Origin: Bdellovibrionota bacterium
GTDB taxonomy: Bacteria > Bdellovibrionota > FAC87 > UBA2466 > JACKAF01
Direction of reading: 5' to 3'
Length of the DNA: 64,000 nucleotides
Assembly: GCA_041751875.1 (NCBI GenBank)
Contig: JBGSIC010000018.1
Coordinates: forward strand, 32,723 to 96,722
In this document: positions 19,775 to 49,129 of the stretch, in pieces
Position numbering within the stretch: position 1 is the first letter of the stretch
How the letters are laid out: every line of letters starts with the position of its first letter
Made by a program: the position numbers and the translations under genes
The notes under the pieces: generated by a model
Database searches by the model: none
What the model was told of the DNA's origin: nothing
Seen by the model: only the letters and a program-made list of their open reading frames with translations

Positions 19775-20143
19775 AGGTCACACTATGCCCTCACTCCTAT
19801 AACCAACATTCGTGCCAGGGGGAACGGGAATATTCCACCGTGATGTTGAGCGTTTTCGCTTGTTTTTCGAACCGGCGGCGCATTTTTGTCGGGCAGCTGG
19901 AAAAAGGGTCGACGGGGGCGTATTCCGTAAAGATACTAAGCGCGCCTCTCCCAACCGCACCAAGCCCCGATTCCGCAATAGATTGGGCACCTTCTCGTCT
20001 TTGCGTAGCCATTGCGTCTACGTTGCTTACACCCTTCAAAAACTCCCTATTGCTCCACCGCTAAGGCCCGAAATTAATTGGTTTTACAGATGCGATTTAC
20101 CCTCTATCTTGGCGCAGAGCTTGCTCTGTAAAGAGGAACAGCT

Positions 20144-23100
20144 TTGAGCCAACGACCGGGGGGCGGTACGCATCTCTTAATAAAAAGCATTCTGGGTCTC
20201 GCTCTTGTCAGCGCGTTTGCGGTTTTCGCGGACGAAGAGGGGTCCACTTTTCCCATCCAAAATGGGTACATGCGCCTTCAAGCGCATGCGCAAGCGGGTC
20301 GACTTCCTCCGAGCGAACTATTGCGCTATCTGAACTGGGGAGGAACTTCCACTTTCAACCGCCTTTTCGAAATCTACCAGTCGGAATTCTTTCGCCCATG
20401 GAGCAACAAGGAGGAGCGCAAGCGCCTTGAGGCTTTCTTGACCGAACAAGCCATTGCGTGGAGAGCTAGCGGTAGTGATGCTGCGGAACTCGGTTTCAAT
20501 CCGCTGGAGAGGCTCTCCGCTGATATTAGACGTTTTGTTCGCGAACAGTCTGTCGATCTCGATAAGCCGATGGGGTTTCACCGCGCAGAAGCACTAGCCC
20601 GCTCAACTGTCTCGACACGACTCTTGCGGTCCGAACGAGACAAACAGATTCGAAAACTCGCTCTGCAATTAGAAGATGAAGTCGATCCCCTGGCCCGCCA
20701 ACAACTAGCGGTTCCCCTAACGGATCGCTTTGGGCCATGGATCAAGGAAACGATGGGTGAAATTGCAGAAGAGAGTATGCGCCACCATCTGCGCTTGCGT
20801 CGCGCGGCCGCACAGGTCGATCCCGATTTAAAGTTCATGTTAGTCCCGGCTGCCGCTGATCTGAATTCGTTGGAAGGAGGGATAGAAATCTCTCCGGACG
20901 AACTCTTGCGGCTAGCCCCGGTCTATAGTCGCGAGGAGAAGTTTCCCATCGGATTAGCCATGCGATTTCGCGATCCCGCTAGAGACGGGGATTTTCGTTT
21001 GGTGGCGAGTCACCCGCGTTTGCAACCGCAGATGGTAAGCCATTTCAATGTAGCTGCTGATGAAACCCTTGCGGCGCTGATGCGTCTTCACACCTTTACA
21101 GACCCAGAAAAAGCCAAGGCGCTTTTTGCGATTCGTACGCAAGCGGATCACGCGAGCGGTCTTTTGTCGGGGACTTTTTCAGCGTGGGGGAGAGGGAGTT
21201 CGCCTGCCGAAGTATTAAAACACTTAGAGGCGAAAAAGTTTTCGTACGAGTCCATGATTTCCTATTTCGGAGATCGCGAGCGCGTACACGATCTGGTGCT
21301 TGCGCAAGTACTGCACGAGCCGCAAAAATGGCAGAAGCGGTATGAATTTTTAAAGCGTTACGGCGCGCTGGGCTCATCTGCGTTGAAGGGACTTAAGGCT
21401 GCAGCCAGCTCCGGAATGGCAGTCGTTCACTACTCTCACGCTCTGGTCGATGAAATGCGGAATTGGCCGGCCGATCTCAAGAGTTTCGCCCACTCGATAA
21501 AAAACAATGTTGATGTTCAGGCGATAAAATTTGGCGATGTACGGGCGAATAACTCTGGGTATTTGGCCAATTTCTTTCGCCGTTTATTTGGGCGCGTGCC
21601 GGCCGGTGTGGCCGCGCAGCCGGCGGTTCAGTCCAGAGGGGAAAGAGTCCAAAGTCCCAATGGAATGGTAGAAGGGGCAAAGCGTGTGGCGAGAGACGTT
21701 GCGATGGCGGTGGCCGGTGCGGGCGTTCTTTCTGGGGTGGCCATCGGCGCTCATGAGCTCGGTCTTCTCGACGACATCAGTTGGGATTTCTTTAAGGGCG
21801 CCGTAGAGGAATCATTTCGTACGCGTTCGCTTGCTTCCGATATGGGGGACCGTTTGGTTGAGCCCAGTAAGGGGTTTTTGGCCTCAGCGATGAAATGGCC
21901 AGCCTTCGCTGGCGTCGCTCTTGTTGCGGCGGCAACACCCGCGCTCTTGAAAAAAATGGGTAAAAGCGCCCGCGCGCAAGTGGAAGAATCAGACCGGCCG
22001 GTCGATGCACTTTTTACCTACCGACCGGCCGAAGGAGGTCAGATGCCCGCGGGTTTGGAAATTCCCATGAGGACGGATTTGACCTTTGGCGACAGCGAAG
22101 TACGCACGATACCGACTGAGGCGGCGGACGAAAACGTGGGTTTAGTCCATTCTCGGCGTCCGGTTGTGTCGCTGGCAGACGGGATGGTCCCCATTGCGCG
22201 TCCGCTGGGCCAAGCTCTTATCGGGCTTAGAGTCACAGATGCCAATCACCGAAGCCTTAAGCAAGGAAGCGATTTCGAAGTGGTTTATCGCCCCGAGAGA
22301 GATGCTTATTTTATTCGTTTGCTAAACCCAGAAATCGGCTCGGTTCATTATCGTGCGGAAGTGGAAGAAACTCCGAGTGGCTCCCATCGTTTAGACGTAC
22401 GCGGCACTTTGGCCTTAGATGATGTAGACGCGCAGAAAGCTTTGAAGGAGGCAATCGAAAGCTCGGGCTTTGACCGTTTGGGGCGACAAATGGGCCAGCG
22501 CATGACAAGGGGAGCTCTCGCCACAACAGGCGACTTGGAAGCCCTTTTATCGCAGAGTAACTCGTATCCGCTCATGAAAGGGGAAAGTCTTCCCGATTTA
22601 CCGACGGATGATGTCGGTAAGTATGAAAAGTTTCAAGTAGGCGGTTGCCTGAATGGTAATTGCACCGTGAGTAACGGCTTTGGTGCCTCCGCGCTAAACG
22701 CGCTTTTACAAGCGCAGGATCCGGAACTGCGTGCTGAAGTGCGAACGACTCTTCCCCTTCACCAGGATGGACGAGCCTTGGAAGGGCACGTGCGCACCTA
22801 TGTATACCGAGGAGACCAACTCGTAGACGTGCTGGACTTTACTTCCAGCAACATCCGGTACGGGGATATTTTCCGTCACATCATGCGCCGGATCACAGGA
22901 CGTCTTCCCAAGCCCCAGGAAAAAGCGAGCGCACCACCGGCGGACAAGAATGCGGTATTTTTCAACTGGGCGCGCACAGAAGGCAAATCTCTCTTAAAAG
23001 CGTTAGCCGATGATCGAAAGTTTTTGGAGGACCAACTTAAACGCCATCGCGTGAGCGATCAGTCTGATCCGTCCAAGCGTCTCTATGCGCTTCATAATTT

Positions 23101-23443
23101 AATGGAGGCCGTACTCGATCCCCACCAGAAGATCGAAGAAGTCGTTGAGCGTGTGGGAAGGCACGTTTCGTTGCCGGATGGGGAAACCGATCGCTACGCT
23201 TTATTCGACGCTATTTCGGCAGCCATTGAAAGGGAAGGTAAGCAAATTGACAAACTTTACGTTGAAAATCCCGGCAGAAATGATTTTGGTACACGTCGCC
23301 GGCACTTTAACCGTGTGAGCTTAGATCCAGTCGAGAAAGTAGCCCCGATGCAAGATGTGGCCCGCGCGATGGCGAGCACAAACGGACAACTCAGCCGAGG
23401 CGTGAAACGCTGCCGAGAAGCCCTAGCGAGTGTCGCTGATTAA
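20144..23443 (+). CDS. large secreted/membrane-associated hypothetical protein (1099 aa) with possible C-terminal transglutaminase-like Cys-His-Asp core
   Basis: TTG start with an AAGAGGAA SD. Signal peptide. Two central hydrophobic helices. C-terminal segment ...GNCTVSNGFGASALNALL...(about 45 aa)...GHVRTYVYRGDQLVDVLDFT resembles the C / HxW-EVY / D-x-T spacing of the transglutaminase-like cysteine-peptidase core. Confidence 0.5.
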   Translation: MSQRPGGGTHLLIKSILGLALVSAFAVFADEEGSTFPIQNGYMRLQAHAQAGRLPPSELLRYLNWGGTSTFNRLFEIYQSEFFRPWSNKEERKRLEAFLTEQAIAWRASGSDAAELGFNPLERLSADIRRFVREQSVDLDKPMGFHRAEALARSTVSTRLLRSERDKQIRKLALQLEDEVDPLARQQLAVPLTDRFGPWIKETMGEIAEESMRHHLRLRRAAAQVDPDLKFMLVPAAADLNSLEGGIEISPDELLRLAPVYSREEKFPIGLAMRFRDPARDGDFRLVASHPRLQPQMVSHFNVAADETLAALMRLHTFTDPEKAKALFAIRTQADHASGLLSGTFSAWGRGSSPAEVLKHLEAKKFSYESMISYFGDRERVHDLVLAQVLHEPQKWQKRYEFLKRYGALGSSALKGLKAAASSGMAVVHYSHALVDEMRNWPADLKSFAHSIKNNVDVQAIKFGDVRANNSGYLANFFRRLFGRVPAGVAAQPAVQSRGERVQSPNGMVEGAKRVARDVAMAVAGAGVLSGVAIGAHELGLLDDISWDFFKGAVEESFRTRSLASDMGDRLVEPSKGFLASAMKWPAFAGVALVAAATPALLKKMGKSARAQVEESDRPVDALFTYRPAEGGQMPAGLEIPMRTDLTFGDSEVRTIPTEAADENVGLVHSRRPVVSLADGMVPIARPLGQALIGLRVTDANHRSLKQGSDFEVVYRPERDAYFIRLLNPEIGSVHYRAEVEETPSGSHRLDVRGTLALDDVDAQKALKEAIESSGFDRLGRQMGQRMTRGALATTGDLEALLSQSNSYPLMKGESLPDLPTDDVGKYEKFQVGGCLNGNCTVSNGFGASALNALLQAQDPELRAEVRTTLPLHQDGRALEGHVRTYVYRGDQLVDVLDFTSSNIRYGDIFRHIMRRITGRLPKPQEKASAPPADKNAVFFNWARTEGKSLLKALADDRKFLEDQLKRHRVSDQSDPSKRLYALHNLMEAVLDPHQKIEEVVERVGRHVSLPDGETDRYALFDAISAAIEREGKQIDKLYVENPGRNDFGTRRRHFNRVSLDPVEKVAPMQDVARAMASTNGQLSRGVKRCREALASVAD

Positions 23444-36810: not shown

Positions 36811-38465
36811 TTTATTTCCTTCTTGAGAGAGTAGATCGAGTAGTCTTCTCTGTTCCGCACTTCCTGGTGATATCTCTGTACGAAAGAATCGAGCTCTCTG
36901 TCCTCAGTGGGTTCATGCTTCATTTTCACAACCACATTGGAACCGGCGAGTTTCCCCTGATAGTAGCGCAGGCATTGGTTGCGTTCAGTTTGTGAGAACT
37001 GGATGCAGTTCCAAACGGTCGGTGTAGCCGGACGCATGCTGGTCATCAGGTAGCCCGCCGGGAAAGCATCATAGAAAAGAATGTGGCTTCCGGCATTTTC
37101 CAGTGTGCTGAGGTCAGCGGAAAGCTCCCCTAAAAAACGCGCGCGTGCGGGGGTGGTGTAAAGACCCGAGTAAACACCGGTTTTCATTTTGGCAGTGAGG
37201 GTAGGGACACTTCCATCTCCGTAAACCATCAGCAAAAAGTGGGAAAGAAAAAGAAGAACAAGAAGGACCGGAGCGGTGGCACGAATCCATCCTAGACTTG
37301 GTCGACCTGCTTCCTTGATCAGTCGCGATTGAATTAAATACAAAAGAAATAAGGAAACCAAAGCGGCAGGCAACATCCCCAAACCCGCCATCGTCGTGTG
37401 ATTGGTGCTACTCATCCCTGTGGCGATGCCAGCTGCAAGCGAGGGAATCCAGACGAGAAAGAATAAATGGCGGGCGACTGCGGTCTGAGCAGTAAAGACA
37501 AAGAAAAAAGGGCCCAGCAAAGCAAAGTACAGACTGATTTGGAGCGCGCCCAAGGAGGTTTGTACGGGAGCAACCCAGCAGAGTAGCGGTGTGAAACAAA
37601 GTAGTATCGCGGCGGCCGAGGGGCGATAGCGGGCGGTCGCGAAGGTGAGGAGTGAGAGAAAAAACACCCACGGTTTAGAGGGGCCCCAGTAGTAGAAATC
37701 ACGAACGAGAGAAAAAAGCTTCGGCCATGCGAGGCGGTTATTGTTTTCAGAAAAACTAAATTCTTTGGCGCGCTCAAGATCGGAAAGGGAAACTTGCGTA
37801 AACAACCATGCCGCCGTAAGGGCCCCACCTAGAACATAGGCAAGGAAAAGGCTCTTGTTTCGCCGCCAGGTCAGTAAAAGAAAAAATAGCGCGTAGGTCC
37901 CGACTCCAGGGACAAAGGAGGGATGCGCGATGACCGATATTCCTTGTGCCAGCCCCGCGAGCAACGCTAACCAGCTTGCCTTGCTCTTACTTTGTAGTGC
38001 GCTCCACCCGAGAAAGACGCCTGCGGTCCAGAAACCTATCGCCCAGGTGTTGTACGAGAGATTGGCAATCGAAAAGGGTACGAAAGCGATCGGGACGAGG
38101 GCAAACAAAAGGGCATAGTTTTTTCCAAGGCGTTTTCGCAAGAGAAAATAAAGCACGCCGGCAACACTGATGGAAAACAGGAGTGATAGTACACGCATAA
38201 AAAGCATCAGACCCGTTACACCAAACAAAGCATGATAGCCACGGACGAAAGGGAGCGAAATGAGGGAAAAAGTTTGGGCGAGCATCAAATCGTCTTTGAA
38301 GATCTGATCGCCCAAGACATAGCGGTAAGGCAGAGCAACGTAAAAACTCTCATCCCAGAAACTGATGCCATAGGGTAAGCGCCAAGCCATCGCGGCCACC
38401 ACAACCAACGCAAAGCATAGTGCTGCGTGTTGAAAAGTTAGGATTCGTTGGTTGGAGGGGTTCAC
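36783..38465 (-). CDS. GT-C family glycosyltransferase (ArnT/PMT-like, GT39/GT83-type)
   Basis: 560 aa with more than 10 TM helices. DE-containing first periplasmic loop (ISFWDESFYV) and a C-terminal soluble domain. Overlaps the methyltransferase 3' end by 28 nt. Confidence 0.7.
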   Translation of the reverse strand: MNPSNQRILTFQHAALCFALVVVAAMAWRLPYGISFWDESFYVALPYRYVLGDQIFKDDLMLAQTFSLISLPFVRGYHALFGVTGLMLFMRVLSLLFSISVAGVLYFLLRKRLGKNYALLFALVPIAFVPFSIANLSYNTWAIGFWTAGVFLGWSALQSKSKASWLALLAGLAQGISVIAHPSFVPGVGTYALFFLLLTWRRNKSLFLAYVLGGALTAAWLFTQVSLSDLERAKEFSFSENNNRLAWPKLFSLVRDFYYWGPSKPWVFFLSLLTFATARYRPSAAAILLCFTPLLCWVAPVQTSLGALQISLYFALLGPFFFVFTAQTAVARHLFFLVWIPSLAAGIATGMSSTNHTTMAGLGMLPAALVSLFLLYLIQSRLIKEAGRPSLGWIRATAPVLLVLLFLSHFLLMVYGDGSVPTLTAKMKTGVYSGLYTTPARARFLGELSADLSTLENAGSHILFYDAFPAGYLMTSMRPATPTVWNCIQFSQTERNQCLRYYQGKLAGSNVVVKMKHEPTEDRELDSFVQRYHQEVRNREDYSIYSLKKEINQIDEDRRG

Positions 38466-38652
38466 AGATTAATCAGTATAGCACGCGTCACAGCGCGCCA
38501 AGGTGGGACTACGCGTCTGCCCCAGCCTTTAAAAAAGGCATCATAATATGGTAAAATAAAAAGGTCTTTTAGCTGCAGATCTTTGTTCCTTAAGGCCGTT
38601 CCGGCCTCTTCAAATCAAGCCTTTGCCTTCGGATTCGAAAGGATTTCCCACG

Positions 38653-39681
38653 ATGAAAACCGTTTTAGTGACTGGTGCCGGCGGATATATCGGCACGATG
38701 ATAGTCGAGCGTCTGTTGGAAGAAAATTATAAAGTTATTGGCGTCGACAGATACTTCTTTGGGAAAGAGTTGTTAGGGGAATCACGGCAACACGAAAATT
38801 TCAGTCTTCTTCAGAAAGACAACCGCAAGCTGACGGTTGAGGATTTCAAGGATGTCGATGCGGTGATTGATCTTGCTGGGTTGTCGAACGATCCCACCGC
38901 TGAATTGTCTCCGACACTTGCTTGGAGCATCAACTATGAGGGCGGGGTTCACACCGCAAAAATGGCGAAGGCCGCCGGAGTGAAACGCTTTCTCTACTCT
39001 TCGTCGTGTTCGGTTTACGGAACAGGACAAGCACTTTGTCTGGACGAGAGTTCCGAACCCAATCCCGCTACCGTTTATGCAGAAACCAAAGTTCAGGTGG
39101 AAAAGGAACTCGCGAAAATCCAGTCTTCGGACTTTGAAGTGGTTGTGCTGCGCAATGCGACAGTTTATGGCTTGTCCAAACGCATGCGTTTTGACCTGGT
39201 GATCAATCTGATGTCACTCACCGCGTGGCGTGATGGAAAGATTGTGATCATGGGAGGCGGAAAACAGTGGCGCCCCGTCGTGCATATTCGCGATGTGGCG
39301 GAAGCCTTTCTTATTTGTTTGGAAGCCGCAAGCGAAAAAGTCGCGGGACAAGTGTTTAATGTTGGCTCCGACGATCAGAACTATCAAATTTTTCAGCTCG
39401 CCTACATGATAAAGTCGGTGTTCCCAGGCTGTGAAATCATCACAGCGCCTGATGACGCCGACAAGCGAACTTACAATGTCAGCTTCAAGAAAATTCAGAA
39501 AGAGCTGAATTTCATTGCGACGATGACTCCGCTGGCGAGTGCCAATGAACTTAAAGTGGCGCTCACGATGGGGCGGATCGATATTTCTGATTCTCGCCTA
39601 AACACTTTGAAGTACTACCAACACCTCCTGAAGGTGCAGGAACTTTTTAAGGAACTCGCCGAAGATGGAAAAATTATCTAA
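38653..39681 (+). CDS. NAD-dependent epimerase/dehydratase (extended SDR)
   Basis: TGAGGYIG Rossmann motif. The YxxxK catalytic pair is expected. ATG at 38653. Confidence 0.8.
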   Translation: MKTVLVTGAGGYIGTMIVERLLEENYKVIGVDRYFFGKELLGESRQHENFSLLQKDNRKLTVEDFKDVDAVIDLAGLSNDPTAELSPTLAWSINYEGGVHTAKMAKAAGVKRFLYSSSCSVYGTGQALCLDESSEPNPATVYAETKVQVEKELAKIQSSDFEVVVLRNATVYGLSKRMRFDLVINLMSLTAWRDGKIVIMGGGKQWRPVVHIRDVAEAFLICLEAASEKVAGQVFNVGSDDQNYQIFQLAYMIKSVFPGCEIITAPDDADKRTYNVSFKKIQKELNFIATMTPLASANELKVALTMGRIDISDSRLNTLKYYQHLLKVQELFKELAEDGKII

Positions 39682-40852
39682 AAGATCCGTCCCCTTTTTT
39701 AAGCATAATCTCCAGGAAGAAGATTTTCTGGAGCTGCAAGATACTCTTAAAAGCGTCTTTCTCACCACGGGTCCAAAGACCAAACGTTTTGAAGAACAGC
39801 TTGCCTCCTATTTAGGAGCAAAACATGGCATCGCCTGTACCAGTTGGACCACCGCTGCTTTTTTGGTGCTAAAGGCCTGGGGGATTGGGCCCGGTGACGA
39901 AGTCATTGTACCGGCGCTAACCTTTATAGCGACTCCCAACATTGTTCTTCACTGTGGCGCCAAGCCGGTCTTTGTCGATTCGGAAGCCCTCACAGGCAAC
40001 ATTGACGTGGAACAGATTGAGAAAGCGATTACTCCGGATACCAAGGCCATCATTCCCGTTCATCTTTATGGACAAATGGTGGACATGGAGAAACTTTCGG
40101 CGATTGCGAAAAAACACAAACTTAAAGTGTTGGAAGACTGTGCGCATTGTATTGAAGGTACGCGGGATGGCTATCGCCCAGGGCAAAAAAGCGACGCTGC
40201 TTGTTTTAGTTTCTACGCCACCAAAAACATTACCTGTGGTGAAGGTGGGGCGATTGTGACGTCTGACTCCGAGCTCAATGAAAAGGTGCGCCTGCTTAGA
40301 CTTCACGGAATGAGTCTGTCGGCAAGCGATCGTTATACAAGCACCTACAAACACTGGGACATGCTCGCTCTGGGATACAAAGCGAATCTCTCTGATATCC
40401 AATCAGCGCTCTTGATTCATCAGCTCGAGCGCATCGACACGGTATTGAAGAAAAAGGAAGAGCTCTGCCAGTTTTATGAAAAGAAACTTTCTGCCGCGGG
40501 TGTTCCGTTCCCGAAGGTGCTACCGGGTAGCCAGTCGGCACGGCATCTATTTACTTTCTGGGCACCACGGGGAAAAAGAGACGAAATGCTTACCGGCTTG
40601 CAAGAAGCGGGCATTGGTGTGGCGGTGAACTTTCGTTCGGTGCCCACCCTGAAGTTTTATCGAGAACGTTACGGTTACGGGCCGGGCAAATTTCCTGTAG
40701 CGGAGAAAATAGGGGAGCAAACCATTACGGTTCCGATGTATGTTTCTTTGAGTCAGGAAGACGCCAGCTACGTGGCGGATCAAATCATTGCGCTGTACAA
40801 GCGCCTTCAGCCTCAGCCTGCCTCAAGCGGAGAATTAACCGCTTCACTCTAG
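39665..40852 (+). CDS. DegT/DnrJ/EryC1/StrS-family PLP-dependent sugar aminotransferase (ArnB/GnnB/WbpE-like)
   Basis: Family pattern ...SFYATKNITCGEGG... with PLP-Lys in ATKN. Confidence 0.85.
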   Translation: MEKLSKRSVPFFKHNLQEEDFLELQDTLKSVFLTTGPKTKRFEEQLASYLGAKHGIACTSWTTAAFLVLKAWGIGPGDEVIVPALTFIATPNIVLHCGAKPVFVDSEALTGNIDVEQIEKAITPDTKAIIPVHLYGQMVDMEKLSAIAKKHKLKVLEDCAHCIEGTRDGYRPGQKSDAACFSFYATKNITCGEGGAIVTSDSELNEKVRLLRLHGMSLSASDRYTSTYKHWDMLALGYKANLSDIQSALLIHQLERIDTVLKKKEELCQFYEKKLSAAGVPFPKVLPGSQSARHLFTFWAPRGKRDEMLTGLQEAGIGVAVNFRSVPTLKFYRERYGYGPGKFPVAEKIGEQTITVPMYVSLSQEDASYVADQIIALYKRLQPQPASSGELTASL

Positions 40853-40856
40853 GTTC

Positions 40857-40878
40857 TAAAACGTGCCAGGCACCTTTT
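40857..40878. terminator. weak bidirectional terminator hairpin AAAA-CGTGCC-A-GGCACC-TTTT between convergent genes
   Basis: 5-bp GC stem flanked by an A-run and a T-run. The sequence is related to the intergenic repeat family. Confidence 0.3.
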
Positions 40879-40882
40879 GGAA

Positions 40883-41971
40883 CTAGCTGGCTAGTTTGGT
40901 TTGGGTGGGATCCGTTTTGGGATCGTTGATGGTCGGGTGACCGCCCAAGGGTTCGAGCGGTAAGGGCACCCAACATTGCTGGGTGTGTGCGAGCTTATCT
41001 GCTTGCTCCAAAATTCTCACCACACGTAAGCCCTGATAGCCATCCGTGCGCGGGGCAACCCCTTTTTGCAAGCAAGATACCATGTGGTTCACTTCGATTC
41101 GAAGAGCCTCAGTTTGATCTATCGCCGGTGAGTAGACATCGCCGTGGCGGTACTTAATGTAGTCCACGTAGCTTTTCTCTTTGTCAGCGGTTTCCAGCGC
41201 GTCCACACCTTTGTCGAATACCTTTATTTTCTGCACGACATCCACATCGTCGTACACAACCATCTTTTTCCGACCAGTCAAAACCGTGCGACGGATTTTC
41301 GAGGGCGACAACCAACTTGCGTGAATCGAAGCAATGAAGTTGTTTTGGTAGTTTAGGTGCATAAAGCCGATATCGGGTTGCGGCAAGCGAGCTGCGTTTT
41401 TCGCCGAAACTGAGATCTCAATCGGATCGTAGGGAATGAGTTCATTGAGAATGGAAAGATCATGCGCCATGAGATCAAAAATAACACTGATGTCCGGTTG
41501 ATAGAGGCCTAGGTTCATGCGCTCCGATTCGTAATAAAGGAGGTCGCCCAAGTCTTTCTTCTTCACCATCTCCTTCATGTAGGCAACAGCGGGGTGGTAC
41601 ACGTAGGTGTGGTCCACCATGAGCATCTTTTTTCGACGCTGGGCTTCTTCAATCAGATAAAGACTTTCCTTTTCCGTCGCCGTCATCGGCTTGGTAATCA
41701 AAAGATGTTTGTCGGCCTTAAGCGCTTTCATACCCAACGCGAAATGACTATGGACGGGAGTGGCGATGACAATCAGGTCGAGATGCGTGTCTTCAAAAAG
41801 ATCGTCGGCGCGCGTCGTGGTACGCACGGAAGGGTAACGTTGGCCTAGCTTTGCCAAACGTTTGGTGTCGAGGTCACACATCCACAAAACTTTCATGTCC
41901 TCGTTCTCGAAGAGGTTTCTAAGTAAGTTGGGACCCCAGTAGCCTATACCGATGATGCCGGCGCGTATCAT
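40883..41971 (-). CDS. Gfo/Idh/MocA-family NAD(P) oxidoreductase (GnnA/WbpB-like sugar dehydrogenase candidate)
   Basis: GIIGIGYWGPNLLRNL Rossmann N-terminus. 362 aa. Confidence 0.8.
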   Translation of the reverse strand: MIRAGIIGIGYWGPNLLRNLFENEDMKVLWMCDLDTKRLAKLGQRYPSVRTTTRADDLFEDTHLDLIVIATPVHSHFALGMKALKADKHLLITKPMTATEKESLYLIEEAQRRKKMLMVDHTYVYHPAVAYMKEMVKKKDLGDLLYYESERMNLGLYQPDISVIFDLMAHDLSILNELIPYDPIEISVSAKNAARLPQPDIGFMHLNYQNNFIASIHASWLSPSKIRRTVLTGRKKMVVYDDVDVVQKIKVFDKGVDALETADKEKSYVDYIKYRHGDVYSPAIDQTEALRIEVNHMVSCLQKGVAPRTDGYQGLRVVRILEQADKLAHTQQCWVPLPLEPLGGHPTINDPKTDPTQTKLAS

Positions 41972-42131
41972 GCCTGCTCCTATTTAGTTTGTGAGGGGGA
42001 AAAAGAAGGTGAGAGGTGAAGCTATAAAGATCATCGGTGAGTTAAAGAATTTCCTTAAGAAAAAAGAATAACGCACACGGTTAACAGTCACGGTGCGTTG
42101 TCGCCGACAGACAGCCCGCCGCGCTGTTTTA

Positions 42132-42140
42132 TGCTACAAT
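42132..42140 (+). promoter_or_regulatory. extended -10 element TGCTACAAT upstream of pilM
   Basis: TGn plus TACAAT lies 110 nt upstream of the pilM GTG start. Confidence 0.3.
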
Positions 42141-42249
42141 GTTATTGTTATCTACGGAGCATCCGTTTTTCCACCCGCTCCACAAGTTATTCAGCCATTG
42201 CGTAGAAAAGGGCGTTTGCCCGTCGCGTATTCTCTTTCATGGGAGTCTT

Positions 42250-43314
42250 GTGGGGTTTTGGGATCAGTGGAAAAAAAGACGTCTGGTGGGAATTGACGTA
42301 GGCATGTCCGGAATAAAAGCGGTGGAGCTTCAGATGGGCAAGAGGCCGCGTTTGATTTCCTACAATCGCGTGAATCTCCCATGGGAAGCCATCGGTAGTG
42401 ATGGGGCGATATCCGATCCCCAAGCCGTCTCTGAGGCTTTGCGATCGTTGTTTGAGTCGTCCACTTTTTCTTCTCGCAAAGTGGCGGTAGGTGCATCAGG
42501 CGCGTCGGTTTTTACAAAGCGTGTGCGCATGCCGCGCATGAAAGAGGTTGAATTGCGTGAGCAGATTAGTTTTGAAGCCGAGCAGTATCTGCCGTTTTCA
42601 GCGGACGAAGTGAACCTTGATTTTGCGATTCTCGGACCGGTTCCTCAGACCAATCAAATGGAAGTGCTGTTGGTTGCCATAAAGAAAGATTTTGCGAGGA
42701 ACTGGGAAACAATTGCCAAGCAGGCCGGGCTTGAACTGGCCGTGCTCGATATCCAACCCTTCGCTTTGGGAAATGTTTTTGAGTTTAACTACGCCGAGAA
42801 CAAAGAGCTGCCGGTGGGTGTGGTTACCCTTTTGTTAGATTTTGGAGCTGGAGCGATCAAGCTGTCCGCTGTGGAGAAAGATAAAACCACTTTCACCCGA
42901 GAAATTCTCGCGGGGGGAATGGTCTGTAGTCAGTTGATCGCCGAAGCGATGGAAATTCCGCTCGACGAGGCGGAGTACCACAAAATTCATCATCCATCGG
43001 CTGACGGCGTTAAGGCGGCGGTTGCCGCCTATGTGCAACACGCCACGGATCAAGTCGCTCGTGCTATTGAAGTTTATCTAAGTGGCGAGGGCGATGTCGT
43101 GATCGACGGCCTCTATATATGTGGTGGCGCTTCACAGACGCCGGGTTTGAAGGACAGTTTGGAAAAGCAGTTGGGTTATTCGGTTCACACCCTCAATGCG
43201 GTACGCAATATCGCAGGCTCTGGGGCAAAGATGAATCCGGAAGCCATTGAGGAACTGAGTTACTTAGGTGCCGTAGCCATGGGATTGTCGCTCCGTTCTG
43301 AGGGCGATTCTTAA
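42250..43314 (+). CDS. pilM: type IV pilus assembly protein PilM (actin-like ATPase fold)
   Basis: GTG start after GGGAG. RRLVGIDVGMSGIKAVEL N-terminus and overall PilM pattern. Confidence 0.8.
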   Translation: MGFWDQWKKRRLVGIDVGMSGIKAVELQMGKRPRLISYNRVNLPWEAIGSDGAISDPQAVSEALRSLFESSTFSSRKVAVGASGASVFTKRVRMPRMKEVELREQISFEAEQYLPFSADEVNLDFAILGPVPQTNQMEVLLVAIKKDFARNWETIAKQAGLELAVLDIQPFALGNVFEFNYAENKELPVGVVTLLLDFGAGAIKLSAVEKDKTTFTREILAGGMVCSQLIAEAMEIPLDEAEYHKIHHPSADGVKAAVAAYVQHATDQVARAIEVYLSGEGDVVIDGLYICGGASQTPGLKDSLEKQLGYSVHTLNAVRNIAGSGAKMNPEAIEELSYLGAVAMGLSLRSEGDS

Positions 43315-43353: not shown

Positions 43354-43779
43354 ATGGAAGCACTCATTGGATTGCAAGCGGGTTTGAATCTGCTGTTTTT
43401 GAGTTTAGGCCTCTATTTATATAAGAAGAGATCTAACGCGTTTGACGGGGAAGCCCAAGCTCAAGCGAAGGCCTACCTGACCGTTCTCGAAAGTCGAGTC
43501 GAAGAGGCCGAGGGGAGAACGCGCAAAGTGATTAATGAGAGCGAGCGCCAACTAAAAATTCTTTTGCAAATTTGTGATCGCGCCGCGGCAGTAATGGATC
43601 AAGCGCAGGTGCCTTCTATCACTTTGTCCTCTTCAGAAGAACAAAAAGAACTCCTCGAAGCGCGTCCCAAGGGCGCGGAATCGATTCCCACCGTAGCGGA
43701 TGTCCAAAAAATGCGACAAAAGATCACAGCAGACAGCGCGGTGGATCTTCCTCAGCTTCTCAACGAGCAACTCGCCTAA
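43354..43779 (+). CDS. small single-TM hypothetical protein
   Basis: 141 aa. N-terminal TM helix (LNLLFLSLGLYLY) then a coiled/charged region. Does not match PilN. Confidence 0.4.
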   Translation: MEALIGLQAGLNLLFLSLGLYLYKKRSNAFDGEAQAQAKAYLTVLESRVEEAEGRTRKVINESERQLKILLQICDRAAAVMDQAQVPSITLSSSEEQKELLEARPKGAESIPTVADVQKMRQKITADSAVDLPQLLNEQLA

Positions 43780-44760: not shown

Positions 44761-44965
44761 TTTTCGGGTAACTCTTAAGCTCCCCTGTCCGGTGCGTGGT
44801 TGGGAATAATTCTAACCTACGAGTATTTACTCGGGTGCTTTCCCTTATTGCTGTGCGCATACCTGCTTGCAGGGAGCCTAAGGTAATAACAGAGTGCCCC
44901 CCTATCTCTGATAGGGTTAAGAATTATCCCGCTACGGCCCATGATGGGGGAGCTTTAAACTCCGT

Positions 44966-45475
44966 ATGATGACAAGTGATAAAACGATCCGCTGGATCGA
45001 GAACCTCGCCGAACAAGAAGTTCTGATTAACTCAGGCGAAAAAACTTCTATCGATATAACAACCACAAAAGGCGAAGTCCTATCGGTTGAAACCGGAAAT
45101 TTTGTTCAAGATTTGCTCCAACAGTTTGAATACCTGGTGCGACTTTTTAATTCCCGAATCGAAAACCGGGATCTCCATATCATTTTGGTGAGTGGCACGG
45201 AAAGAGGGGCGGGTTTCTCCCTGGTGCGCAACCAGATGAAGCTCACGCTCAGCGCCCCCCTTGCGGGTCGCATTCAGCTCAGCTGCATGAAGATTGTCGA
45301 AGAGGACAAATCGATGCCTCCCAAGGTGAGTGTCATGTTTAGTGGACTCATCGAATCAAGTTTCGGTACCTTCCATGACGTGGAATGGTACTTTTTGGGC
45401 ACTCGGGTTGACGCTGAGCAGGTGGCGCGCCACTACTTGACCGAGTTTATCCAGGCGAGCCGCCGTCCGAGTTAG
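44966..45475 (+). CDS. hypothetical cytoplasmic protein (169 aa)
   Basis: ATG start. No TM, signal peptide or known motif. Upstream of the flp gene. Confidence 0.4.
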   Translation: MMTSDKTIRWIENLAEQEVLINSGEKTSIDITTTKGEVLSVETGNFVQDLLQQFEYLVRLFNSRIENRDLHIILVSGTERGAGFSLVRNQMKLTLSAPLAGRIQLSCMKIVEEDKSMPPKVSVMFSGLIESSFGTFHDVEWYFLGTRVDAEQVARHYLTEFIQASRRPS

Positions 45476-45541
45476 TTTTCCAACTCTCGTACTACAGACC
45501 ATAATTTCGACCCTTTAGTTTCCCGCTTGAGCCTATGTTTT

Positions 45542-45556
45542 TGGCATCCCGTTCGC
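45542..45556 (+). promoter_or_regulatory. candidate sigma-54 promoter TGGCAT-N5-TCGCA upstream of flp pilin gene
   Basis: GG and GC elements spaced 10 nt apart, about 30 nt upstream of the flp ATG. Confidence 0.4.
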
Positions 45557-45584
45557 ATTGCTTTGTTAGGAAAGCGAGGGGAAC

Positions 45585-45836
45585 ATGAAAAAACACCCTA
45601 GAAAAAATGTCGGGCAAGGATTGGTGGAATACCTCATCCTGACCTGTTTAGTGGCGGTATCCGCGATCGCCGTGGTGAGCGTCGTAGGACAAAACATCCG
45701 CGCCCGGTACGCGAATATTTCGGCAGCGATTCGCGGGACGCGGGGAGGAGAGAAACTGGAGGCGGCCGATGATTCCTCCGTTGAGATGCGAGGATTCCAT
45801 GATTTTGGGGAAGCGTCGTTCAATCAAGGGAACTAG
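45585..45836 (+). CDS. flp: Flp/Fap-family type IVb prepilin
   Basis: Leader MKKHPRKNVGQG followed by G/LVEYLILTCLVAVSAIAVV. The G-x4-EY processing motif and hydrophobic core are typical of Flp pilins. Confidence 0.75.
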   Translation: MKKHPRKNVGQGLVEYLILTCLVAVSAIAVVSVVGQNIRARYANISAAIRGTRGGEKLEAADDSSVEMRGFHDFGEASFNQGN

Positions 45837-46185
45837 CGGACAAGTCTTTTGCGAAGCCAGTATGATTTGTTTTTTGGTCGTTCTGGCACTTGTTCTCAAT
45901 ATTGAAATAGTTCGTCGAGCGGGTTGGGAAACTACGTTGCAATACGCCAGTTTCAGATTCGCCCGGAAGCGTGCGATGGGCAAAAGTGATCGGAGAGCTA
46001 GAGACGAAGTGAGATCCTTTCTGCTTCTCACCGGAGCTCATGGCAGGGGAGGGCCTCGGTTAAAGTGGACGAGTCACATTTCCTGGGACGACAAAATGGT
46101 GGGAAAAATCTCCACGCGCTTTCCTTCGCTTCTGGCTCTTCCAGATAAACATCACTACGAAATGACCAAAGCATGCAGGTTTTAG
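45799..46185 (+). CDS. TadE-like pseudopilin
   Basis: MILGKRRSIKGTSGQ-VFCEASMICFLVVLALVLNIEIVRR parallels the TadE N-terminal domain (basic leader, hydrophobic helix, IEFGR-like end). Start is uncertain (45769, 45799 or 45862). Overlaps the flp 3' end. Confidence 0.45.
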   Translation: MILGKRRSIKGTSGQVFCEASMICFLVVLALVLNIEIVRRAGWETTLQYASFRFARKRAMGKSDRRARDEVRSFLLLTGAHGRGGPRLKWTSHISWDDKMVGKISTRFPSLLALPDKHHYEMTKACRF

Positions 46186-46760
46186 TGCTCCTTTCCCTTC
46201 CCGTCTTTGTGGCAAGTCTTGCTGCTTCGCTCGATTTGTACAAAGAGGTGTACCGATTGGAAGAACGCACCATCGGTGTGGATAACGCGGGAATAAGCTT
46301 AGCCAGCGCAGACGCCCATCTGTTCAACCATTTTGAGAAAAGTAAGAGAACCTTTGACCGTCTCGAAACGGCTCATCATATCGTGCATCTTTGTGCGCGC
46401 TCCGCTGTCGCGACAGCGGCTTGCCTTAAGCAGGATGTGGCGCTGGAGAAAGCCCTTACTGTTTCGGCGAACTTGCTATGGAAGAGTCTGCAAATCAAAT
46501 GGACTAAAAATCTGATCGCCGCCCAAAGCGAGGCGATAAAAAGGCGCACCACAGTTTGCATAAAACACCGGCCCCGTCTTCCCCCGTTTGAAAGAGGCGT
46601 TTGCGAAACATGCAGCCTCCCTGTGAAATGGAAGCAAACGGTTCGGCGTCCGCTTTGGGAAGTTTCCGAATGTCCACAAAGAAACGCCCCTCTCGTTATT
46701 CAAACACTATTGGAAAAAAGTCCCTCTGGAAAATGGTGGAGCCGCTTGAGGGAAGGGTGA
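46173..46760 (+). CDS. hypothetical protein with N-terminal hydrophobic helix (possible TadF/TadG-like)
   Basis: MQVLVLLSLPVFVASLAASLDLYKEV N-terminus. The Cys-rich C-terminal half is of doubtful coding quality. Confidence 0.3.
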   Translation: MQVLVLLSLPVFVASLAASLDLYKEVYRLEERTIGVDNAGISLASADAHLFNHFEKSKRTFDRLETAHHIVHLCARSAVATAACLKQDVALEKALTVSANLLWKSLQIKWTKNLIAAQSEAIKRRTTVCIKHRPRLPPFERGVCETCSLPVKWKQTVRRPLWEVSECPQRNAPLVIQTLLEKSPSGKWWSRLREG

Positions 46761-46918
46761 AAACAAAAGGCACTTTTCTCATCGAGGGGTTTCTGGTGAT
46801 TTGGCTTTTAGTCGCTGTGATAGGCACGGTTCATCTTTCGCTTCTTTGTAAAACCCAACGTGAACTTAAGGTTCTTCAAGAAAAGCGGCTGCACTATAGT
46901 AGAGAGAGCCCGCCATGA
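46733..46918 (+). CDS. small prepilin-type N-terminal cleavage/methylation-motif protein
   Basis: MVEPLEGRVKTKG/TFLIEGFLVIWLLVAVIG has Glu at +5 after Gly, then a hydrophobic helix. Its stop overlaps the cpaB ATG (ATGA). Confidence 0.35.
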   Translation: MVEPLEGRVKTKGTFLIEGFLVIWLLVAVIGTVHLSLLCKTQRELKVLQEKRLHYSRESPP

Positions 46919-47604
46919 AGGGGGCTCAGTTTCCGAAATGTTCCCGCCGAAGGGCGCAACTACTTTTCTCTCTTTTTGTATCTTGCTGCGTAGGAATGGT
47001 GGTCGTGTGGGAAGTTTTTCGGTTCACAAATCGCTCCCTTGATCAGGTGGAAGATTACCTTCTCGTGGCTCGCCGAGATTTGAAGGGGGGGCACCGCGTG
47101 ACGCTTCAAGATCTTTCTCTCGTTCCGGAATCAAACTGGCATGTGGAAAGAAGCGCGGATGCTCTCACGGATGCCGATCTTGAGTTTGTAGGAAGAAGGT
47201 TGATAGCTGACATCAGCGGCGGAACCCTCTTTACGCGTTCCCTCTTTAAGCCCCCCGAGTCCAAGGCTACGTGGGGTGCGAAGGTTCCGAAGGGCTTTAG
47301 AGCGTATGCGCTTTGCGTGGAAACAGTCCTTCCCGTTCAAGCCAAAGACAGGGTGGACCTGGTTCATTCAGAGAAGCGGAGCGCTGCTCAGGTAGCGGAG
47401 GATCTTTTGGTGTTGGGGGTGCGGCCTTGTGAAGGGGGAAGGGAGGTAATTCTTGCGGCGCGTCCTAAAGACGTTGAGTTGGTGGAAAAGGCGCGCCAAA
47501 CAGGTAAACTAACAATAGTCATTCGAAACCCCGCCGATAAAAAACGAAACCGGCACCGAAAGAAAACCAACCCAGCTAAGGTGATTATTTGGAACGAAGA
47601 GTAA
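46915..47604 (+). CDS. cpaB: Flp pilus assembly protein CpaB/RcpC-like
   Basis: N-terminal TM, SAF-like segment (LLVARRDLKGGHRVTLQDL), then a C-terminal RcpC-like region. Confidence 0.6.
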   Translation: MKGAQFPKCSRRRAQLLFSLFVSCCVGMVVVWEVFRFTNRSLDQVEDYLLVARRDLKGGHRVTLQDLSLVPESNWHVERSADALTDADLEFVGRRLIADISGGTLFTRSLFKPPESKATWGAKVPKGFRAYALCVETVLPVQAKDRVDLVHSEKRSAAQVAEDLLVLGVRPCEGGREVILAARPKDVELVEKARQTGKLTIVIRNPADKKRNRHRKKTNPAKVIIWNEE

Positions 47605-48881
47605 AAAGTGGGGTTTTGAGAACTTTACGAAAGACGCTAGGGGGGCATCCTCTTGTATGGGGCCTAATCTTTTCCTACGGCATTGCCCAGGCCGTACCCA
47701 TTCCAACTCGTGAGCGGGTGCTCGGCATCGCCCAGTTGGGAGTTCCGGCAGATATCTCCCATTCGCGCGCGTATCCCCTGCTGGAAAAGAAACTCGAAAA
47801 CTTTTTGGAAAAACTGGGTCGCACACCCGTCAAACGTTCCCCAATCACTCTTCCCAAAAGTCAGGTGCAGATGTTGACCGCCAGCACTCAGGTACAAAAA
47901 CAAACCGAAAGTCTGACGGTAGCGCTTAGCGAAGATGCTTCCTCTTTGAAGTCTGTTCATGCAGCGCTCGACCAAACCCTGAGCGCTTATCCCATTCATT
48001 TTCCTTCAGCGGGAATCTGGCAGCGCGCCTATGTGGCACAAGCGGCGTATTGGTGGCAACGGCAGAATAAAGAAAAGGCGCTGGAATGGTTGAGCCGTGC
48101 GGCGTTGCTGCATCCGGATCAAAAGATCCAGGATAGCAGTTCGTTTGCCTTTGAGGCACAGGCGCAACCTAAACTTTGGCTGGCGTTTGATTCCCAGTTG
48201 GAAAATCAGCCCTCTTTACTCAACTATTGCGCGGTGGAAGTGGTTGTTCCGAAAATGCCTCACTCAGGAAACATAAGGGTGAACGGTTTTTCGTTTGGAA
48301 CTCGCCGGGCTTTTCGCCTTCCTTTGGGAGGGACCTATCTTTTCGACTTCAGTCATGAAAAGTGGAGCTCCACGCGGGAAATGGTTCGTTGTCAGAAGGT
48401 GAGCAAAATCCGAGTGGAGTTAGCTCTGGTTCCCAAGAAAGAAGATTTCTTGGCCCTTGATTCCCGTAACGTGTCAGAGGAAAGCTCATCGGTTGTTTTG
48501 ATCGAATCACTCCAAGATCGCTTTCGTTTTTTTCTCTATACACCGGGCGAGGCCTTGGACGAGATCCCTCTCGAAAAGCCAGTGCGAATCGCAGAACTTC
48601 TAGAAGATCCTCTTTCCGCCACAGTTCCTATTCAAAGCGATGCGCTTAAGCACTTGCTTGAAAAGCACGAGGGAAGCCCTTTGAGTCTGGCAACGCTCTC
48701 GCTGGATTCTCCGTCATTTGCAGGTCAGGAAGAGCACGGTGTCACGACGCCTTGGTACAGGGACTGGAAAGTTTGGGCGGTAGCCGGCGGCATCGTGGGC
48801 GGTGTGATCGCGGTTCACTTAGCGACGAAAAAATCAGAGGTAACAGGCCAGGCCCACGGCCTGAGAATCGAGATTAAATAA
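47589..48881 (+). CDS. secreted hypothetical protein with TPR-like motif and C-terminal TM anchor
   Basis: Signal peptide ...PLVWGLIFSYGIAQA. TPR-like AYVAQAAYWWQRQNKEKALEWLSRAALLHPD. C-terminal helix WAVAGGIVGGVIAVHLA. Not a secretin. Confidence 0.4.
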   Translation: MERRVKSGVLRTLRKTLGGHPLVWGLIFSYGIAQAVPIPTRERVLGIAQLGVPADISHSRAYPLLEKKLENFLEKLGRTPVKRSPITLPKSQVQMLTASTQVQKQTESLTVALSEDASSLKSVHAALDQTLSAYPIHFPSAGIWQRAYVAQAAYWWQRQNKEKALEWLSRAALLHPDQKIQDSSSFAFEAQAQPKLWLAFDSQLENQPSLLNYCAVEVVVPKMPHSGNIRVNGFSFGTRRAFRLPLGGTYLFDFSHEKWSSTREMVRCQKVSKIRVELALVPKKEDFLALDSRNVSEESSSVVLIESLQDRFRFFLYTPGEALDEIPLEKPVRIAELLEDPLSATVPIQSDALKHLLEKHEGSPLSLATLSLDSPSFAGQEEHGVTTPWYRDWKVWAVAGGIVGGVIAVHLATKKSEVTGQAHGLRIEIK

Positions 48882-49129
48882 TGGATGAGAGCCAGAGTAA
48901 GTTCTTGGTTAACTTCTTTTCCCAGTTTTCTCGTGAGCAGTTGTTTATTGGTTTTTGGTTGATGATTCTGGGGTTGTTTCTACTCTCGGCGACACGCTTT
49001 TTGGGTGGGCGAAGTCAACGCAACTTCAGAAACGGGCCCTCAACTCCACAGAAACCTCCGACGCCTTCCTCGAGTAAAGCGGTGAGTGTCCCACGTAAAG
49101 ACCTCACGAAGGGGCCACGATCGCGCTAA
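48881..49129 (+). CDS. small membrane protein (hypothetical)
   Basis: One TM (LFIGFWLMILGLFLLSA) then a Pro/Ser-rich tail. Start overlaps the previous stop. Confidence 0.3.
   Translation: MDESQSKFLVNFFSQFSREQLFIGFWLMILGLFLLSATRFLGGRSQRNFRNGPSTPQKPPTPSSSKAVSVPRKDLTKGPRSR

Follow-up and report, generated by a model that had tools for sequence, protein, structure and literature searches.

The stretch of DNA considered here, a window of 64,000 nucleotides from a Bdellovibrionota bacterium (contig JBGSIC010000018.1, assembly GCA_041751875.1), carries a compact seven-gene operon for an Flp-type pilin and its partner proteins, and this operon is found as a unit in an uncultured Bdellovibrio-like group. 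It is probable that the cassette forms one sigma-54-dependent operon for an Flp/Tad (type IVc) fibre and its periplasmic parts, with the motor encoded elsewhere. This reading is built on the observed gene content, the compaction of the operon, the conservation of its parts and its promoter and a distant kinship with the flp3 locus of Bdellovibrio bacteriovorus. As read from the sequence, a -24/-12 element is followed by seven genes on the plus strand (45542-49129), and an upstream palindrome precedes them. Lengths are given in amino acids (aa); TPR stands for tetratricopeptide repeat and ORF for open reading frame.

45496-45511, plus strand: palindromic upstream element, degenerate copy AGACCATAATTTCGAC, from a motif search of orthologous upstream regions
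45542-45557, plus strand: sigma-54-type -24/-12 element TGGCAT-CCCGT-TCGCA, TGGCATCCCGTTCGCA, from sequence and conservation
45585-45836, plus strand: flp, Flp-type prepilin of 83 aa, with G/QGLVEY and then a hydrophobic helix
45799-46185, plus strand: pilin-like protein 1 of about 128 aa, with G/QVFCE, from an alignment of 8 orthologs
46173-46760, plus strand: ORF3 of 195 aa, a conserved gene between the pilin-like gene and the 61-codon ORF
46733-46918, plus strand: mini prepilin-like protein (mini-pilin) of 61 aa, with KG/TFLIE, present in 8/8 syntenic loci
46915-47604, plus strand: cpaB/rcpC homolog of 229 aa with an N-terminal membrane anchor, from TIGR03177 and an RcpC profile match
47589-48881, plus strand: 430-aa TPR/PEGA protein with a C-terminal anchor, from model and domain evidence
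48881-49129, plus strand: 82-aa single-pass membrane protein, with orthologs directly after the 430-aa gene

Neighbouring genes overlap by 1-38 nucleotides (nt) throughout the seven and the gene downstream is convergent, which is the layout of one translationally coupled operon. The terminator scan gave no clear terminator after 49129, its predictions being at chance level. The 195-aa gene at 46173-46760 was missing from the feature list of the first-pass annotation of this DNA.

Syntenic contigs were found through homologs of the 430-aa protein, and a metagenome scan with the Flp alignment added 80 more loci; a hidden Markov model (HMM) census then placed the loci in two classes, A and B. The data read were the 64 kb of the source genome and 6-10 kb on either side of the relatives' cassettes. 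Class A consists of the window, L001, L003, L005, L008, L010-L014, L016, L023, L026, L028, L030, L032, L039, L043, L053 and L088, plus shorter fragments. The same seven genes stand in the same order in L001, L003, L005, L008, L010, L011 and L012 and in almost every metagenomic class-A locus of sufficient length; about 20 loci are long enough for the whole cassette, and nearly all of these hold seven collinear genes with intact frames. The G+C content of the class-A loci runs from 41 to 60% (measured in eight). The identity of the 430-aa protein falls to 17-30% across its family, yet the seven genes persist. For all seven, synonymous sites are saturated (proportion of synonymous differences, pS, about 0.6-1.1) and the nonsynonymous proportion (pN) is far lower; pN and pS are reported since saturation made dN/dS mostly uncomputable, and where it could be computed dN/dS was 0.08-0.38.

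Of the seven genes flp evolves most slowly, and the accessory proteins as well as the 430-aa protein change at a much higher rate. Where a pair of loci has Flp at 79-92% identity, the values for CpaB, the 430-aa protein and the three pilin-like proteins lie at 36-76%, and for the most part at 36-57%. Such a pattern of a conserved Flp with variable accessories is reminiscent of variable pilus-tip modules. Some loci depart from the common form: the CpaB of L010 (9345-10004) appears without its N-terminal SAF region, L038 (2823-3330) has a short CpaB match followed directly by the small membrane gene with no match to the 430-aa family, and L026 (7107-8663) gives weak and short matches for both CpaB and the 430-aa protein.

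The sigma-54-type element called earlier upstream of flp is present, with its true end at 45557, one base beyond the end first noted. Its GG-N10-GC spacing is canonical with two mismatches to TGGCAC-N5-TTGCA, and 27 nt, including a GAGGGG ribosome-binding site, separate its end from the flp ATG. On motif statistics alone the call is weak: two-mismatch matches to the consensus are not rarer in the window than by chance (28 found, 31.7 expected), and the narrower pattern TGGCAY-N5-TYGCW was found 2 times against 0.34 expected. It is accepted because comparative conservation settles it. All 8 syntenic loci carry [T/C]GGCA[C/T]-N5-T[C/A/T]GC[A/C] shortly upstream of flp, and of the distinct class-A loci 25 of 26 have retained the element, whereas the same search returned it from 0/47 class-B upstream regions. 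In the motif-anchored frequency matrix TGGCA is 92-100% conserved and T..GC 100%, with flanks at 31-58%. Conservation strongly backs the predicted sigma-54 promoter.

Further upstream, 45-102 nt before the -24 box, a palindrome of consensus AGTCCGAnnTTCGGAC recurs in the orthologous regions. In 24 such regions its best match averaged 10.57 of 16, a value not reached in any of 10 shuffles (9.61 at most), and no enrichment was seen elsewhere in the window. The distances to the -24 box cluster at 45/46, 55-57, 66-69 and 76-79 nt, in steps of about one helical turn (Rayleigh R 0.77-0.83 at a period of 10.5-11 bp; the nominal phasing p-value overstates the case, as related loci are not independent). 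The phased palindrome is a candidate site for an enhancer-binding protein, i.e. the activator. Other sigma-54-like sites were seen in the window. A perfect consensus, TGGCACTGGCTTTGCA, lies at 32776-32791 (minus strand) and ends 15 nt upstream of the ATG of a putative lipoprotein ORF (32321-32761, minus strand, 146 aa, without a Pfam family), which suggests that the genome uses RpoN. Two one-mismatch sites, at 19802-19817 (minus) and 20110-20125 (plus), face outward in one intergenic region between divergent large genes without Pfam families (18148-19734, minus, 528 aa; 20144-23443, plus, 1099 aa).

The first gene was rightly called an Flp prepilin in the first-pass annotation; cleavage directly before LVEY, as then given, has to be replaced by the site G/QGLVEY. 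The N-terminus reads MKKHPRKNVG/QGLVEYLILTCLVAVSAIAVVSVVG, a processing site of the form G/XXXXEY that places cleavage after G10; a hydrophobic helix comes next. Orthologous Flp proteins are 41-59% identical, and GQGL[VI]EYLIL is invariant in 8 orthologs. Against the Pfam family Flp_Fap (PF04964) the window protein stays below threshold (13.8 bits, cut-off 32.2, E=0.052); sub-threshold matches to Flp_Fap and Class_IIIsignal occur in 8/8 orthologs, the best Flp_Fap match having E=0.0014. The ortholog profile matches the solved 45-residue pilin chain of 8u1k, PilA (E=0.0048).

Pilin-like protein 1 has an open frame of 45769-46185 that overlaps the 3' end of flp, and the ortholog alignment points to 45799 as the likely start. 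The protein shows SG/QVFCE, a hydrophobic helix and a conserved C-terminal KHHYEvt..CRFPF. Its G/XXXXE site is kept in 7 of 8 aligned orthologs, the gene call in L011 beginning after the site; HMM matches were obtained in the class-A loci that reach the gene, and pN is below pS. None of the 8 orthologs matched any Pfam family, pilin families included. The earlier call of a TadE-like pseudopilin stands as a conserved gene with a G/XXXXE site; membership of the TadE family does not, Pfam TadE being unmatched (0/8). 'TadE-like' is therefore a statement about the motif and not the family, since only G/XXXXE and the hydrophobic helix support the label. The mini-pilin, the stop of which overlaps the cpaB ATG (ATGA), would be about 48 aa long if processed. 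The G and E of its G/XXXXE site are invariant in 8/8 sequences (consensus RGxxLxE), with a C-terminal R.(P)YDG; HMM matches recur in class-A loci, and pN is 0.12-0.47 against a pS of 0.66-0.83. Pfam TadF matches 1 of 8 members (E=0.045). The 61-codon prepilin-like ORF proposed earlier, conserved in 8/8 syntenic loci under purifying selection, is shown by this comparison to be a gene.

ORF3 consists of an N-terminal hydrophobic helix, a long helical hairpin and a small beta domain, with the invariant residues DN..I, H, W and CxxC. The protein starts directly with the hydrophobic helix and lacks a G/XXXXE site. The AlphaFold model, built on a 10-sequence alignment from a homolog search, has a predicted local distance difference test (pLDDT) score of 84.6 and a predicted template modelling (pTM) score of 0.69; it shows a 73-residue helix, a second long helix packed back on it and the small beta domain. 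The TadG N-terminal model PF13400 matches 0/8 orthologs, and for the window's own copies of pilin-like protein 1, ORF3 and the mini-pilin the Pfam scan returned no family at all. The stretch 'IAVDNAGI' recalls the TadG N-terminal motif, and the hairpin with its beta domain recalls the published description of KilN, which is only a lead.

The cpaB gene was assigned to CpaB/RcpC in the first-pass annotation, and the profile evidence points the same way: TIGR03177 matches with E=1.2e-13 (51 bits, below the cut-off of 71), and a profile of 7 orthologs matches the solved RcpC 9gzr_A along 165 of its positions (44-208 of 237), with E=1.4e-5. The two Pfam models, RcpC (E=0.0061) and SAF (E=0.0096), stay below cut-off, and a word-index homolog search with the protein returned as its only match a near-identical (99%) 199-aa database copy of the window protein. 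The 430-aa protein was described earlier as TPR-like with a C-terminal transmembrane segment, which agrees with our results, the TPR signal being weak; the PEGA-like part is an addition. By eye, the N-terminus is signal-peptide-like, ends in AQA and has no cysteine. The domains follow in the order signal peptide, alpha/beta, TPR-like helical, PEGA-like beta-sandwich, further alpha/beta and a transmembrane anchor at residues 394-413 (model pLDDT 82.9, pTM 0.73). The model matched no solved whole-protein fold. TPR_2 is weak on the window protein (E=0.21), the family profile aligns with consensus TPR proteins over positions 120-169, about 1.5 repeats, and weak PEGA matches occur in 7 of 54 members. 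The family is small, with 91 cluster representatives among 1.84 billion, and among the 20 clusters looked up every named member is 'hypothetical'. The 82-aa protein has conserved KFLV and QRNFR motifs and a hydropathy segment at residues 19-43, and in loci of sufficient length its orthologs come immediately downstream of the 430-aa gene.

The second class of loci has a parallel gene order: flp, a G/XXXXE protein of about 120 aa, a protein of about 240 aa, a G/XXXXE mini-pilin of about 60 aa, a membrane protein of about 160 aa and a secreted protein of about 290 aa. Class-B Flp is 32-46% identical to class-A Flp, and the core GQGL[VI]EYLI is common to both. In hhalign comparisons between the classes the probability was 94.6% for the mini-pilins, 65% for the 430-aa versus the 290-aa protein, 52% for CpaB versus the 160-aa protein and 46% for the first pilin-like proteins. 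Four of six mismatched control pairs gave 0.2-3%; the other two, between pilin-like families, gave 79-93% over about 26 N-terminal columns, because of the shared N-terminal hydrophobic helix. From these alignments class B appears to be related to class A as a deeply diverged sister class and not the same family. The CpaB-like protein of class B is shorter than that of the cassette and is unrecognised by Pfam RcpC, no counterpart of the 82-aa membrane protein is seen downstream of the secreted protein, and the sigma-54 element is lacking, unlike in class A. The flp3-type gene is always immediately preceded by one for a small conserved protein, …KVKLSKDGSSIDFVQSDSLPTSLKKFRQSPEIEGFYRF… (L035 5517-5876, L058 5463-5846 and other class-B loci), beside which an apparent folD, recognised from translation only, lies on the opposite strand.

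Primers for flp3 (bd3297) of strain HD100 map to L035, L040, L045 and L058 at collinear positions with 2-4 mismatches, and the translation of one of them, LKKFRQSP, is a conserved peptide of the gene upstream in class B. This identifies class B with the flp3 locus type, and the nearest described relative of the cassette would be the flp3 (bd3297) locus, a distant one. The likeness to the Bdellovibrio hit region suggested in the first-pass annotation has to be given up in favour of this non-TAD locus, as hit is a TAD operon with its own ATPase and secretin; the hit/TAD region bd0108-bd0119 contains ATPase, platform, secretin and CpaB. A link to flp4 (bd4000) was also rejected: in the loci retrieved its primers gave only scattered four-mismatch matches of the kind expected by chance, and its start, MNKRGQIVVE, differs from that of the window Flp. 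The flp3 gene lies outside the TAD operon, as flp of the cassette does, and it is silent in the conditions tested, dispensable for predation and unresponsive to FliA; B. bacteriovorus has a separate complete TAD operon besides it (PMC5430801). Avidan et al. 2017 describe flp3 as a single orphan pilin gene and not as a cassette (PMC5430801).

Pfam scans of the window ORFs detected no CpaF/TadA-type T2SSE ATPase, TadB/C T2SSF protein, secretin, prepilin peptidase or TadZ. These scans covered non-overlapped ORFs of at least 150 aa and selected smaller ones, with a few ORFs of at least 150 aa that overlap longer ones outside the scan. The result agrees with the earlier observation that Tad ATPase, platform and secretin are missing from the window, and adds the peptidase to the list. 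Neither the Tad motor, nor a secretin of the RcpA/CpaC type beside cpaB, nor the peptidase occurs in the precomputed gene calls within 10 kb on either side of the cassette in seven relatives, and no GSGKT ATPase motif stands beside the cassette in 11 listed class-B loci. The only secretin near the cassette in relatives is PilQ, and the only other pilus gene of the window is pilM (42139-43314).

A mechanism is proposed from these parts. They comprise a major-type Flp pilin with three pilin-like accessories, of which two carry a G/XXXXE site, a ring protein of the CpaB/RcpC type, a small membrane protein and a periplasmic TPR/PEGA protein which would be held in the inner membrane by its C-terminal helix. 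RpoN holoenzyme would wait at the -24/-12 element until an enhancer-binding activator fires, which probably binds the phased upstream palindrome in response to some signal. Processing of the prepilins would then fall to a prepilin peptidase and their assembly to a CpaF/TadBC motor, both encoded elsewhere. The accessory pilins may prime or cap the fibre, by analogy with the 'tip' complexes proposed for TadE/F/G-type proteins, and CpaB and the TPR/PEGA protein could build the periplasmic part of the conduit.

Several observations weigh against this picture. We infer, rather than observe, the dependence on a motor elsewhere, since the sequence read from this genome showed neither motor, platform, peptidase and secretin genes nor rpoN or an activator gene; rpoN and a cognate enhancer-binding protein gene are both absent from the window. 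The Pfam TadE, TadF and TadG models (PF07811, PF16964, PF13400) do not recognise the three accessory proteins, the ORF3 model has no significant match in the PDB and resembles no solved pilin, and hhalign finds no detectable similarity between ORF3 and its positional counterpart in class B (1.9%). The window copy of the palindrome (45496-45511) is degenerate and belongs, with a score of 8.4, to the weaker copies. In L001 a mere 13 nt or so separate the end of the -12 element from the ATG, which would leave the mRNA nearly leaderless. Finally, the flp3 relative is silent and dispensable in laboratory conditions (PMC5430801).

Other explanations were weighed against the same evidence. The main rival holds that the cassette works with type IVa machinery (PilMNOPQ, PilB/C/D) and that the Flp fibre exits via PilQ, hence the lack of a secretin of its own. 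In relatives reaching far enough the cassette does lie 2-4 kb downstream of pilMNOPQ, with only an approximately 140-aa gene, a phaR-like gene, the 6S RNA, a 168-aa gene and sometimes one or two reverse-strand genes between, and TadV was not found in Bdellovibrio genomes by Avidan et al. (PMC5430801). Against this, the window genome keeps the cassette and pilM but has no pilNOPQ at that place, the ORFs listed around class-B cassettes do not, from their translations, look like pil genes, and CpaB/RcpC is a Tad-specific part; the linkage may be mere conserved gene order, because housekeeping genes such as the 6S RNA intervene. We regard this explanation as unlikely. A more elaborate form of it makes the cassette a signal-gated replacement of fibre and periplasmic ring, in which Flp exits via PilQ and the TPR/PEGA protein and CpaB serve as adaptor. 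This is equally doubtful; if true, it would be a hybrid machine with a Tad fibre and a type IVa pilus pore, and Bdellovibrio-like predators would swap fibre-tip-ring cassettes on a shared motor, with the cue coming via the sigma-54 activator.

A cassette that needs no secretin is also conceivable, one that makes no surface pilus but a membrane or periplasmic assembly, such as a short pseudopilus or an envelope-sensing or anchoring complex. The missing secretin noted above would fit, as would ORF3 and the 430-aa protein without a solved whole-protein fold match, a mini-pilin and ORF3 unlike canonical TadE/F/G, and the loci which shorten or lose parts (L010 without the SAF region, L038 without a 430-aa match). 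But Flp is the most conserved protein, has the full G/XXXXEY signature and resembles a solved pilin chain named PilA, and a pseudopilus likewise needs ATPase, platform and peptidase; this possibility also carries little probability. Much less likely still is a fortuitous -24/-12 match, with the operon read from a sigma-70 or other promoter. Sigma-54 matches of such quality do occur at chance frequency in the window and a weak sigma-70-like site lies at 45477-45505, but sigma-70-like matches are themselves as numerous as expected by chance, and exact spacing kept in all but one class-A locus amid unconserved flanks, with none in class B, is not what a fortuitous match predicts. The least probable reading is that of a decaying remnant of a once-complete tad operon, or of small ORFs that are not genes. 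The missing key Tad genes, the sub-threshold Pfam scores and the transcriptionally silent flp3 relative (PMC5430801) could be taken in this sense, but the promoter is conserved across class-A loci, and the intact collinear frames across the whole G+C range, with pN far below pS, rule the decayed remnant out. The small ORFs are conserved, as expected of the genuine cassette proposed in the first-pass annotation.

The genomic neighbourhood of the cassette shows further regularities. A 6S/SsrS RNA gene (44779-44954, plus strand; Rfam RF00013, 82.9 bits) lies between a phaR-like gene and a 169-aa gene, and it occurs at the same place in 7/7 syntenic relatives (77-105 bits). The 169-aa protein (44966-45475, plus strand) belongs to no Pfam or NCBIfam family and is strongly conserved in all relatives, with a C-terminal EQVARHYLTEFIQ.SR; its gene always comes immediately after the 6S RNA and before the flp promoter, with an opposite-strand phospholipase-D gene interposed in some relatives. 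In the window pilM (42139-43314) is followed after a 39 nt gap by a 141-aa gene (43354-43779). In the relatives reaching that far pilN, pilO, pilP and the secretin gene pilQ, about 4 kb, stand between these two, which implies that the window genome has lost or moved pilNOPQ with pilM intact. An RDD-family gene (31799-32320) is directly upstream of pilM in relatives L010-L012. In the window about 10 kb of sugar or O-antigen-type genes are inserted between the two, within the region 31799-42139, namely a glycosyltransferase, formyltransferase, WbqC, methyltransferase, DUF2142, epimerase, DegT aminotransferase and oxidoreductase.

Bdellovibrio depends on Flp/Tad pili for predation, and Myxococcus needs them to kill on contact; our study bears on the ways in which such bacteria vary and control these pili. 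In Bdellovibrio-like bacteria at least one 'orphan' flp type heads a conserved cassette of six to seven genes, which carries its own pilin-like set and its own CpaB-like protein. Four unannotated families are brought to light: the mini-pilin of about 60 aa, the helical-hairpin protein, the TPR/PEGA anchor protein and the small membrane protein. In the uncultured, freshwater-rich clade the sigma-54 promoter and phased palindrome offer a regulatory handle and point to a specific activator and signal. The value of these findings is incremental rather than paradigm-changing, since split Tad systems and satellite minor-pilin clusters have already been documented.

Among the known systems, the canonical tad/cpa loci are represented by flp-tadV-rcpCAB-tadZABCDEFG of Aggregatibacter and cpaA-F of Caulobacter. 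The cassette shares with them the G/XXXXEY Flp, G/XXXXE pilin-like proteins, a CpaB/RcpC homolog and a TPR protein (compare TadD), whereas it lacks TadV/CpaA, RcpA/CpaC, TadZ/CpaE, TadA/CpaF and TadB/C. The 430-aa protein has no visible lipobox and carries a C-terminal anchor and a PEGA-like domain, unlike the lipoprotein TadD. Control by sigma-54 and PilR is found for type IVa pilA in Pseudomonas, Myxococcus and Geobacter. Here as there, the pilin gene lies directly behind a -24/-12 promoter with an upstream palindrome suited to an enhancer-binding protein; on the other hand, the cassette promoter would drive Flp-type (type IVc) genes instead of a type IVa pilA, and the activator is not encoded nearby, no PilS/PilR pair being seen in the window.

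Parallels in organisation come from Myxococcus, in which Tad parts are split over several loci with satellite minor-pilin clusters, and minor-pilin trios encoded apart from the motor have been proposed to act as interchangeable pilus tips (PMC8460266, PMC12075869). In M. xanthus, Kil cluster II groups an Flp pilin with CpaB and three minor pilins of the TadE/F/G type, at a distance from ATPase and secretin (PMC8460266), and the cassette resembles it in grouping its own Flp, accessory proteins and CpaB. However, Kil cluster II has the platform genes KilG/H, which the cassette lacks, and the Kil cluster annotation shows no sigma-54 promoter, no TPR/PEGA protein and no small membrane protein of this kind. 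A further difference is that one accessory protein of the cassette is only about 60 aa long and that ORF3 has no prepilin site. The likeness to the Myxococcus tip clusters extends to the mode of evolution, as in the cassette too the accessory proteins outpace Flp in divergence.

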